From assembly GCA_965371665.1 (NCBI GenBank), contig CBDUZI010000001.1, forward strand, positions 9,411 to 73,410: 64,000 nt of DNA, in the 5' to 3' direction. Shown piece after piece: positions 58,601 to 64,000 of the stretch (position 1 is the stretch's first letter; each line of letters opens with the position of its first letter). The translations under genes and the position numbers were made by a program. A model generated the notes under the pieces. The model saw nothing but the letters and a program-made list of their open reading frames with translations. It made no database searches and was not told the DNA's origin. The stretch is from an uncultured bacterium (lineage in GTDB: Bacteria; Oederibacteriota; JAAXVQ01; JAUVAV01).

Positions 58601-61600
58601 TGGCCCCGGGCTGACGGCTGAAGGATGTCTCGTAATTGGGTAATTTCGTCGGGGCTTAAGTTCCAAGTCTGCTTAAGTAAAGCTAGCGCTGCTTCCCGCT
58701 CTGCCGGAGAAAAATGCGCCACCCCGTTTGCAGTGCCGAACACATTTAAAAGCTCCTGCTCCAGAATCCAGGCTTCTTCCACGAGTCTTGCCTCATTTGT
58801 CAAATCCGGGCGGGCAACCAGACCCTGCATTCTTAAGTCATGCAGGTGGGCATATAGTGCTTTCCGGTATCCCACCAAGGTTACCTGGATGTCACTCTGT
58901 AATATCTGCCCATCCAGCTCGATGTTTTCATGCCCTCCAGTTCTCATATCGGCCGATCGTCTTAAAACACGGATGCGAGGAAGATCCAAGAAACTGGACA
59001 AATCAGGATGAACTCTCAGGATACGGCCTATGCCACGGGATAAATTCAGCAATTGCCGAGGTAGAAGGTCCGCGGTCTGAAGGATTTCAGCCTCTGTATC
59101 CGGCCTGCTTAAATCCAGGCCTCTTTTTGCGGACTTGAACAAATCTGATGCCTTGCGATTGGCGACTCTGTTTATAAATGCATGCAGCGGCTGTTCTTCA
59201 GATATGACGAAAAGAATTCTCAAGACGGTCATCCGGGCTGGTTCAAACAACTCGAGCTGGCTGAGATTTTCCTGCAAGTAGGCCTGGGCCGCAGCCGGAT
59301 CATCGGCAGCCAGATTTTCGAGTTCCTGGTAAAAAGCCGTGACGCGCTCTGACTGCTCACTTTTCCGCTCGGCGCGCTTCGACTCAAGATTGTGCGCTCT
59401 TAAACCCAAGGCCGGATGCGCCATCAGCAGGATAATCTCCATTTTCACCGCTGAGGGCAGGGAACGGATTTCGCCCAGAACCTCTCGACCCGCAACTTGC
59501 TGGGCGACCAGATCCGCGGCCTGGATTTCTTGTTGCGCCAAGCCCTTGGGATGTCTGCTGGATGCCGCCAGCTCATTTATAAGCCCAGGCACAGCTTCTG
59601 CCAGAGCCGGATTCTGGTAGGCGGCTGCCAGCATGCTCGCCAGCACGGCCAGAACCTGTCCCTCGCTGGTGAACTCGCCGCTTGTGCGTGCCTGCTCGAA
59701 TTGGTTCAGCATCTTTCGAAATTGTCTGACCTTGGTCATTCCCAGGATGGACCGATACAGGCTGTTTAAGCCATCTGCCCGGGATGGGGCATCCACTTCA
59801 TTGGCAATCCGGCCGAATTGAGTCGTCGGTTCAATCGGTACCAGCTGGCTCTGGCTGCGACCGTGTAGCCGTTCGAAGAAGAGTCTCGCCCGCATATCTG
59901 TCCGGACCGCTTCGTCACCGTATCTTTCTATCAATTGATACGTGATCGCATCTGCCAGGACCCTCGGGTTGTTCAGTTTGATCAAAGTCTCTGAAACCAC
60001 TACCCGTTTCCGCCTGCTGTCCCAGCGCGTGAAATCCAGAGTGCTCCAGCCGGTTCGTGGCAGAGCGGCCACTTGGAAGGTAATGTCCTTTGGAATGTCC
60101 AGCGTTTTCACTTGGCCGTTTGCCAGGCGAATGCCTTGGGTTTTTAACGCTGTGATGACTCTCTGCCCCACGGTTTGCACCGCGGCCGCAGGTGCCAGAT
60201 TCACCCGCGCCTCGCGCCCGCGACGCACTAACGGGAGGGCCAAGACTACCGCGCCCAGCAGCAAGGTCAAGCCACCCGCCAGGCCTCCAGCCAGCGTGGG
60301 AATGCCGAAGACCACCAGGATATAAACACCTATGCCGGCAACCACCGCGCCCAGGCCAACGGCCGCCCAATCGACCAGGCGCAGGCTGCGCACGGTGCCC
60401 GTCACCAGACGAACCATTTGCCCCGATGCTCCCCTCCCACGGACAATTAGAGGGGCAAAGACGAGGTATAAAAACATCGCAATCGGCAGACCGATGGAAA
60501 TCAGGGTGTCCCTAGCCTGGCTTAGGGCTTTTACTTCGCGGAAAAGGGAAATCCAGAGAGGCGCAATCAGGCTGAGCGTGATGAGCAAAGCGGGTATACC
60601 CAGGGGAACACTTACGAATAGAAGCAAAACCGGTATGGAAAGCACGAGGCCGGTGGTAATTATTACGGCTACTGACTTAAACACCGCGCCGCGGCTGGGA
60701 GAAAGACGGGCAGCGATGGTGTCAGAGAGCGCCAAGGAAACGGCTAGCAAATCCCATGCGTGAGCCAAGAATTCACAGAAAATGACATTCCAAAAAATAT
60801 AGCCAATTGACTTGTTTCCTTTTTCGGCTGCTTGCGCGTATTGGGCAATGGATCGATTGAGTCGCCCTAATACGAGGTCTGCCGCAGTTTGCGCCCAGCG
60901 GTGGGCGTATTGTTCATGCGCCAGAATTACCGGATTTGTAATCCTCTGGCCTTCAGGAGCTACCATCTCCCCTTTTTGCGGATTATATTCTCCGACATTC
61001 TCAGCCAGATGACCCCACATGGCTACCAGGCCGTACTTCTGGTAAAGCGCCCGCATTACCATGCCTACTTTTGTCAGGGCCCAGATTAAATAACCGCCGG
61101 CCACTAGGGATATCAGGGAAAAAGCCGAACCGACCAGCATAATCAGGCCCGCCACGGTTGCAGCACCCAGAACGCCAGGCAGGCTTAAGGGCTGCATGAC
61201 CCGCGGTTCCGCAGAAATGATGGTTAATTCGTTGATCTGCACACAGCTTCCAACCATGTTTTGCGTCTGGATGACCCCAACCTCGAGGTTAAAGGGATGT
61301 TGACCGCTTTGCAATTCATCCGGCAGATAGTCGGCTAAGTTGTAGATAAAAGTCCCCTCTAAAACGGTGTCCGGTTGGAGGCGTACAAACCAGTCAGGCA
61401 TATGGGGAGACTTTAAAACCAGATACCAACCTCCCTGCAGATCAGATACATCGACCCTCATCCGCTGCGGCAGATCCATGTTAAGTACTACCGGCTCTTT
61501 TAACTCGATTCTGCCGTAACTCGGGATACCGCGGTGGATAATCTGGATTCCGTCGGCTTCTACTTGAGTCAACTTTACGTTCCATTCATCAAATCGGGAC

Positions 61601-64000: not shown

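Follow-up and report, generated by a model that had tools for sequence, protein, structure and literature searches.

The window analysed in this study is a stretch of 64,000 nucleotides (nt) from an uncultured bacterium (GenBank assembly GCA_965371665.1, contig CBDUZI010000001.1, positions 9,411 to 73,410), and its minus strand carries a giant open reading frame (ORF) that contains a direct repeat encoding part of a membrane domain. Giant genes of bacteria have been recognised recently. The positions of the giant ORF, of the repeat and of the other features are summarized in Table 1. The frame of the giant ORF is open from the first full codon of the window at 63999, and both arms of the repeat are in this frame. 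The start at 63852 given by the ORF caller is merely the first TTG codon. No stop codon is present upstream of this codon within the window, that is, between 63999 and 63852, indicating that the giant gene extends past 64000. The giant protein contains dozens of hydrophobic segments, which are arranged in clusters according to hydropathy analysis.

When the giant ORF is compared with itself by BLASTN, the minus-strand segments 63999-63644 and 60897-60542 share 83.8% identity across 357 nt (E 7e-105). These arms correspond to nt 1-356 and nt 3103-3458 of the visible gene, and their spacing is 3102 nt, which is equal to 1034 codons. The same pair is obtained by a separate repeat search. Just one further internal repeat is detected at the DNA level in the 38-kb gene by self-BLASTN, a tandem 376-nt pair at 62450-62075 and 62027-61652. 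The identity between the arms is mosaic, being ~93% at nt 1-135, ~55% at nt 136-225 and ~90% at nt 226-355. The proteins encoded by the two copies, termed copy A (at the window edge) and copy B, are 81% identical over aa (amino acids) 1-118 and 68% identical over 150 aa, and their similarity ends abruptly after '...LIAPLWISL' (aa 118/1152). The repeat already covers the first codon in the window, and the single base at 64000 (C) is the third base of the Arg codon that precedes the repeat in copy B. Because the similarity starts at the first codon and the base at 64000 matches, the repeat almost certainly runs on beyond 64000, and copy A is cut by the window edge. An exact 50-mer search of a genome contig set, and protein and profile scans of genome, metagenome and viral contig sets, give no sequence that extends copy A past 64000. 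The initial annotation of the window had placed an intragenic direct repeat at 60541-60900 and 63651-64000, with copies ~1035 aa apart, a window edge inside one copy and divergence after the repeat. This repeat is real and in frame, the coordinates agree with those given above within a few bases, the spacing is close to the measured one, copy A is truncated at 64000 and the sequences that follow copies A and B do differ.

The repeat is the C-terminal half of a specific, so far unannotated five-helix membrane domain of ~225 aa. A HMMER search of 1.84 billion cluster representatives with a profile of the two copies matches only six proteins, with E values from 4e-13 to 6e-6. All six relatives are long (1154-5599 aa), and one of them, P0003, has three matched stretches. 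In the relatives, the conserved unit begins ~107 aa upstream of the visible part of copy A, and copy B has this N-terminal half too. The domain is present one to three times near the N-termini of a small number of very large multi-domain membrane proteins that are unrelated in other respects, and it is the sole region that the window protein shares with the matched relatives. The protein identity within the family is 30-50% across genes. Thus, the block that had been taken for a generic transmembrane (TM) anchor is half of a specific domain with only six other clusters in this search. When the profile of an alignment of ten instances (alignment A2) is searched against the window protein with hmmsearch, exactly two copies are found, and none is found in the remaining ~11,600 aa. 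A word-indexed homology search with aa 901-1250 or with the A2 profile gives no relatives, probably because hydrophobic words use up the limit of 8000 candidates.

The domain has a consensus order of elements. It begins with Q-P-L-x-L-P-G, which is followed by a helical hairpin, a beta-hairpin with P-V-G-x-Y-[ND]-P and a helix with A-H-[ED]-Q-[YF]-A-H-x-W-[AV]-[QH]. The C-terminal part consists of a short helix with A-x-Y-A-Q-x-A and three long hydrophobic helices, the first of which contains G-Y-x-[IV]-W-N...E-x3-H-x2-D. Copy B contains all of these elements, in the order QPLSLPG, TM a, helix b, beta-hairpin, HEQYAH helix, AQYAQAA helix, TM c, TM d and TM e. The visible elements of copy A are the end of the 'WAQ' helix, the AQYAQAA helix and TM helices c, d and e, and the copy A counterpart of the HEQYAH motif should lie just beyond 64000. 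Conserved positions are numbered here as protein aa position minus 927. The positions that are invariant in alignment A2 are W108, S123, A128, A131, G139, Y140, N144, H153, D156 and A159, and those that are near-invariant are Y78, A100, H101, Q103, A105, H106, A109, A125, Y127, W143, E149 and L151. In the E-x3-H-x2-D motif, H and D are invariant, and at least 90% of the instances have E. The Q-P-L-x-L-P-G motif is conserved in five of the eight instances that include this region, and QPLxLPG does not recur at other places in these proteins.

The AlphaFold2 (AF2) model of the domain, which was built from the ten-sequence alignment, is moderately confident, with a mean predicted local distance difference test score (pLDDT) of 76.7 and a predicted template modelling score (pTM) of 0.60. 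It contains helices at positions 13-30, 34-70, 96-118 (HEQYAH), 124-132, 138-169, 174-202 and 204-234 and a hairpin at positions 76-86. None of the ten instances of the domain matches a Pfam family beyond chance level at E values up to 10, or any NCBIfam family. The best E value in a sequence profile search of the PDB is 0.22, which is at chance level (the names returned by the Pfam/NCBIfam/PDB searches are NMDA receptor and FlhD), and no fold match is obtained when the model is searched against the PDB with Foldseek (best E 0.69). A rare unannotated membrane domain with clear invariant polar residues is thus defined, and it is worth a family definition.

Table 1. Features of the giant ORF in the window (positions numbered from the first nucleotide of the 64,000-nt stretch)
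Feature	Position	Strand	Residues (aa)	Details
Giant ORF	25663..64000	-		at least 12,778 codons; stop codon 25663-25665; N-terminus beyond 64000; no internal stop
DNA repeat arm 1	63644..63999	-		self-BLASTN
DNA repeat arm 2	60542..60897	-		repeat search and self-BLASTN
Copy A of the domain	63640..63999	-	1-120	profile positions 108-229; i-Evalue 8e-44 (hmmsearch, A2 profile)
Copy B of the domain, complete	60535..61206	-	932-1155	profile positions 3-230; i-Evalue 1e-89 (hmmsearch, A2 profile)
79-nt tract	63872..63950	-		one mismatch (non-synonymous) to 60770-60848; two 39-nt exact runs; encodes AQYAQAAEKGNK(L/S)IGYIFWNVIFCEF
H-E-Q-Y-A-H motif, copy B	60901..60918	-	1028-1033	near-invariant in the family as H-[ED]-Q-[YF]-A-H
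E-x3-H-x2-D motif, TM helix c, copy B	60751..60774	-	1076-1083	EFLAHAWD
E-x3-H-x2-D motif, TM helix c, copy A	63853..63876	-	42-49	EFLAHIWD
QPLSLPG motif	61174..61194	-	936-942	N-terminal border of copy B
GH5 (Pfam Cellulase), cassette A	62632..63345	-	219-456	E 6e-6; 26.3 bits against a cut-off of 23.5
Three tandem all-beta domains, cassette A	61195..62487	-	505-935	~142 aa each; CBM/jelly-roll-like
Cassette B	57853..60225	-	1259-2049	internal ~150-aa repeat, 44% identity
SecY domain, full length	56695..57852	-	~2050-2435	PF00344, E 6e-40

Non-synonymous (dN) and synonymous (dS) divergence between copies A and B was estimated by the method of Nei and Gojobori. The copies differ by 33 synonymous and 27 non-synonymous changes, and the overall dN/dS is 0.23. 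In block 1 (codons 1-45), dN/dS is 0.22 and dS is 0.23. In block 2 (codons 77-118), dN/dS is 0.07 and dS is 0.33, the protein being almost unchanged in spite of 10 synonymous differences. These results show that purifying selection on both copies is strong. The neighbouring tandem duplicate of beta-domains (repeats R1 and R2, 82% identical in DNA) has a dS of 0.24 and a dN/dS of 0.84. This pattern is relaxed or diversifying, in contrast to that of the membrane domain at similar dS, indicating that the membrane domain is under much stronger constraint. The middle block between the two conserved blocks (codons 46-76) is saturated, with a dS of ~1.7, and the 32 codons after the repeat resemble unrelated sequence, with proportions of non-synonymous and synonymous differences (pN and pS) of 0.52 and 0.54. 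A tract of 79 nt within the repeat is almost identical between the copies and is a candidate for a recent gene-conversion tract. Among codons for the same residue, synonymous change is seen in 1/24 in this 79-nt core and in 21/67 elsewhere (Fisher p = 0.006), and in 7/14 in the middle block and in 15/77 in the two flanking blocks (p = 0.036), with block boundaries that were picked post hoc, after the data had been inspected.

The domain varies far less among the copies of one gene than from gene to gene. Over its core, the proteins of copies A and B share 84% identity, and either copy is at most 53% identical to any other member of the family. The three copies of P0003 are 77-92% identical to each other and 68-75% identical to those of its close relative P0002. 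P0007 is the full-length, 7,681-aa form of P0003. The copies in P0003/P0007 are 80-86% identical in DNA over 375-397 nt, the same phenomenon in an independent gene. In P0007, the informative sites shift along the copies from 24:3 in favour of (c1,c2) to 2:24 for (c1,c3) (Fisher p = 1e-9), and the TM-a region, in which synonymous change is near-saturated (10/12), lies beside tracts of 96-98% identity. This is a classical signature of gene conversion among old paralogues.

The two arms in the window are probably paralogous copies of the conserved membrane domain, which are old duplicates homogenised by gene conversion under purifying selection. By analogy with P0007, and from its own patchy dS, the window pair may be read as a pair of old paralogues that have undergone conversion, and their DNA identity of ~84% is better explained by conversion between old paralogues than by recent duplication. 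According to this explanation, the conserved core of the old duplicates would be homogenised repeatedly by short-tract intragenic conversion, which would give the sharp borders of the repeat, its unrelated flanks and the ~93/~55/~90% patchwork of identity. The pattern resembles concerted evolution in that copies within a gene are closest to each other, that tracts of near-identity are arranged as a mosaic in both the window gene and P0007, and that the copies of P0007 are incongruent. Repeat-bearing bacterial surface proteins undergo intragenic homogenisation of their repeats. Spidroin repeats are also homogenised within the gene by gene conversion and show concerted evolution (PMC3933166). 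Unlike the repeats of both these groups, the copies described here are not tandem, but are dispersed, 1034 codons apart with unrelated enzyme cassettes between them, and they are only two or three multi-helix membrane domains under purifying selection, and not structural or antigenic repeats. Homogenisation of internal domain paralogues by gene conversion is a known kind of phenomenon, and the finding is otherwise ordinary as an internal domain duplication; the domain itself is unannotated. Repeats at the nucleotide level are few in such a gene, and the one described here does not testify to recent growth. It would represent a conserved domain kept uniform by conversion, and it is a warning against taking DNA identity as age.

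A single, fairly recent segmental duplication of just this stretch, followed by uneven constraint without conversion, is a rather improbable explanation of the repeat. The dS of the conserved blocks (~0.23-0.33) is close to that of the tandem beta-domain pair, and both pairs could mark one duplication burst; in addition, incongruence cannot be shown in the window, which has two copies only. However, synonymous divergence is uneven, from the saturated middle block to almost nil in the 79-nt tract. The flanks are devoid of residual similarity, though a duplication of that age that included them should have left some. Moreover, the same domain is explicitly mosaic in P0007, where highly diverged and nearly identical tracts lie side by side. 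Besides the post hoc choice of the blocks, several points weigh against conversion between old copies of a conserved domain. The two window copies alone cannot rigorously separate conversion from a single duplication with uneven constraint, copy A is seen in its C-terminal half only because its N-terminal half is outside the window, the last two helices of the domain are not conserved in P0003, and the TM glutamate is replaced by Gly in P0001.

An assembly artefact, either a chimeric join or a spurious second copy derived from strain variants, is very unlikely. The source is probably a metagenome assembly, and the gene is broken up in other assemblies of this population. Among the matches listed, contigs L001-L003 (ENA ERZ23498918, ENA ERZ25748485 and Logan SRR21487743), which are 1.3-3.3 kb in size and encode an identical ABC permease, break ~170 nt upstream of this adjacent permease, a breakpoint that corresponds to the 3' end of the giant gene; longer contigs, of up to 50-200 kb, are also counted for this permease. 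However, the reading frame is kept through both copies and across all four junctions within the 38-kb ORF, and the differences between the copies track codon structure, as in evolved paralogues and unlike errors. Copies A and B have distinct conserved neighbours, and the same multi-copy layout is present on independent contigs from two JGI samples. In addition, the longest exact run shared by the copies is 39 nt, which is shorter than typical final k-mer sizes and read lengths. The risk of collapse is therefore low, and the warning in the initial annotation that the repeat makes assemblies prone to collapse or chimerism is overstated. A function at the nucleic acid level, for instance as a folded RNA element or as a signal for recoding or pausing at two sites of the mRNA, is hardly tenable as the cause of the identity, because, although the 79-nt tract shows almost no synonymous change, the conserved blocks of both copies fold no better than shuffled sequences (z +0.46 to +1.30), block 2 has accumulated its synonymous differences with the protein almost unchanged, and the family is kept at the protein level across genes that share only 30-50% identity.

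The domain contains two 'E-x-x-A-H' elements. One, EQYAH, is located on the juxtamembrane helix, and the other, E[FVL]LAH, is located inside the first long TM helix, with D three residues further on. The invariant His, Glu/Asp and Asn residues may possibly form a metal-binding or catalytic site. Several points count against such a site: the proposal is motif-level reasoning that presumes a spatial clustering of the conserved residues, the spacing of the motif, H-E-x3-H, is one residue more than the H-E-x2-H of zincins, P0001 lacks the TM glutamate, the last two helices have lost their conservation in P0003, and no protease family or fold is matched. The QPLxLPG segment is modelled by AF2 as a short strand, and it presumably pairs with the hairpin next to the HEQYAH helix, because the model contains no other strands. 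With such a site, the domain would do a conserved job beyond anchoring where each downstream segment begins, such as processing or membrane handling of the giant polypeptide. There is a slight chance, as judged from the motifs, that it is a self-processing module, and it is equally doubtful that it represents a new membrane-embedded metal-dependent hydrolase or self-processing module that heads each segment of a giant polyprotein. In such a case, the QPLxLPG strand beside the H-E-x3-H helix would mark or cut the segment border, and the domain in the window protein would act together with the built-in SecY-SecA translocon described below. If this is true, the domain would provide the first concrete handle on where and how giant proteins of the Omnitrophota type are divided into working units.

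Known protease families do not account for the domain. It does not fit the zincin-type metalloproteases, since H-[ED]-Q-[YF]-A-H is one residue too long, no peptidase family of Pfam or NCBIfam is matched and no PDB match is obtained. It does not fit the site-2 proteases, since the HExxH and LDG motifs are absent from alignment A2 and none of the 10 instances matches Pfam or NCBIfam. Nor does it fit the CPBP/Rce1 family, since the EExxxR, FxxxH and HxxxN motifs are absent from alignment A2 and no HMM match is obtained for the 10 instances. The resemblance to intramembrane metalloproteases (site-2 protease/M50, CPBP/Rce1-type and Ste24/HtpX) is a functional analogy only, in that conserved His, Glu and Asp residues are located on or in membrane helices; no similarity in sequence or fold is found for the domain. 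Its place at the borders of large segments of a possible polyprotein would fit the post-translational cleavage proposed by West-Roberts et al., who proposed cleavage for other peptidase domains (bioRxiv 10.1101/2023.11.21.568195).

The SecY domain of the window protein aligns to free-standing SecY from TM1 to the C-terminus with 24-30% identity. It lies ~90 aa upstream of a region that is matched by SecA_DEAD (E 8.5e-16) and P-loop_SecA (E 3.7e-6) in Pfam. From these domain matches, the SecY and SecA regions (54130-57852, minus strand, aa ~2050-3290) would effectively be a built-in SecY-SecA unit. A word-indexed search with the SecY region returns only ordinary SecY proteins of 445-522 aa. Cassette B, the region between copy B and the SecY domain, ends directly at SecY TM1, and an Arg-rich sequence precedes the SecY N-terminus. 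The N-terminus of canonical SecY is cytoplasmic. For copy A, five helices are counted in the domain and one after it, and for copy B, five in the domain and three after it. If all of the counted helices span the membrane, both cassettes share one side with the segment that precedes copy A, and, with the canonical orientation of SecY, both cassettes are cytoplasmic. This topology from helix parity conflicts with an exported cassette of glycoside hydrolase family 5 (GH5) and carbohydrate-binding module (CBM) domains, which also counts against the explanation of the repeat proposed above. Because a cytoplasmic placement is odd for GH5/CBM, at least one helix assignment or topology assumption is wrong. 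The extracytoplasmic location that the initial annotation gave to the cassettes is putative for cassette B, which adjoins the SecY N-terminus and lacks any Pfam or PDB match. The same kind of topology difficulty is reported by West-Roberts et al. (bioRxiv 10.1101/2023.11.21.568195).

Cassette A, which follows copy A, consists of GH5 and three tandem all-beta domains, as had been indicated by the initial annotation of a glycoside hydrolase clan A domain with beta-sandwiches. The AF2 model of the beta-domains has a pLDDT of 70.8 and a pTM of 0.69. When it is searched with Foldseek, the top matches, with E values from 8e-4 to 1e-2, are to CBM61, CBM16, CBM86 and MAM/Eph-type jelly rolls. Cassette B has no Pfam or PDB match. 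No BLASTP match is obtained between the two cassette regions (aa 150-935 and aa 1185-2050). The growth of the gene by duplication of 'TM-anchor plus cassette' units, which had been proposed from the repeat, is not borne out, since the cassettes have no detectable similarity and the homology ends at aa 118/1152. A second repeated TM module, 'PLSLGFWxSLLxxPxxLNRAxxWG...', is present at several sites in P0003/P0007 and P0002 and in locus L004 (16703-17068 and 18374-18739), and its copies are ~80% identical in DNA. In places, this module is duplicated together with the following ~500-aa cassette, as seen from collinear high-scoring segment pairs with a constant offset. Duplication of an anchor plus a cassette thus occurs in this protein class, but not for the domain studied here. 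Two older duplications are seen in the window protein. Segments 51187-52125 and 45001-45942 (minus strand), which encode aa 3959-4271 and aa 6020-6333, are 26-29% identical over ~310 aa, and both end close to a helix that is strongly hydrophobic. The GH5/beta-domain cassette has a distant paralogue at aa ~10430-11060.

The architecture suggests that the gene is of the Omnitrophota 'giant gene' type, a label that is weakened by being drawn from architecture and literature, and not from phylogeny; the window contains no marker genes. Giant genes of Omnitrophota are reported to be TM-rich, to encode a divergent SecA DEAD domain and to lie beside carbohydrate import genes (bioRxiv 10.1101/2023.11.21.568195; 10.64898/2026.06.07.730766). 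The window gene resembles the 'Archaeovorin'-type genes of this group in having more than 12,000 codons, many TM clusters, divergent SecA_DEAD/P-loop_SecA and a glycoside hydrolase domain, in being mostly dark to Pfam and in adjoining genes for ABC import of carbohydrates. Outside the GH5, SecY and SecA domains, ~9,000 aa of the giant protein have no significant Pfam domain, the only match being ORF6C below the gathering cut-off. The numerous TM regions and the divergent SecA DEAD domain that characterise the class are both present. With at least 12,778 aa, the ORF belongs to the class of Nielsen & Lui (10,000 aa or more) and is below the 30,000-aa class, and the main set of West-Roberts et al. 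(2023) consists of genes of >90 kb that encode 30,000 aa or more. Proteins of 7,000-10,000 aa or more are also counted as giant in the literature. The full-length SecY embedded directly upstream of the SecA part is different from the situation in West-Roberts et al. (2023), where SecYEG is encoded elsewhere, and SecY is never mentioned in the text of Nielsen & Lui 2026 (bioRxiv 10.64898/2026.06.07.730766). According to the latter authors, domain repeats in these genes are mostly old and are not recent tandem expansions. The domain studied here and its motifs are described in neither of the two papers.

The relatives of the window protein also lie in regions with giant genes. P0007 adjoins another giant gene, and P0001 adjoins a gene of >6,652 aa with PPDK, methyltransferase and FBPase domains. 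Pfam gives no match for P0001, P0002, P0004 and the first 4500 aa of P0007. The giant gene of the window is followed on the same strand by genes for two ABC permeases (BPD_transp_1 in both), small conserved genes, a gene for an OmpA-domain protein and a gene for a sugar-binding protein (SBP_bac_1). Five collinear genes at 16787-22316 (221, 328, 261, 316 and 592 aa) are 38-58% identical to genes at 33612-40610 of locus L005. The 592-aa gene of this cluster encodes an OmpA domain, and the cluster lies downstream of the giant gene in the window and downstream of P0007, indicating that a conserved cluster accompanies different giant genes. The C-terminal ~770 aa of the window protein (25666-27969, minus strand, aa 12011-12778) are 29-41% identical to the C-terminus of a different giant gene product of over 6,294 aa, the gene of which is located upstream of P0007 in locus L005. 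This similarity suggests that the C-terminal ~770 aa may be a conserved module common to otherwise unrelated giant proteins.

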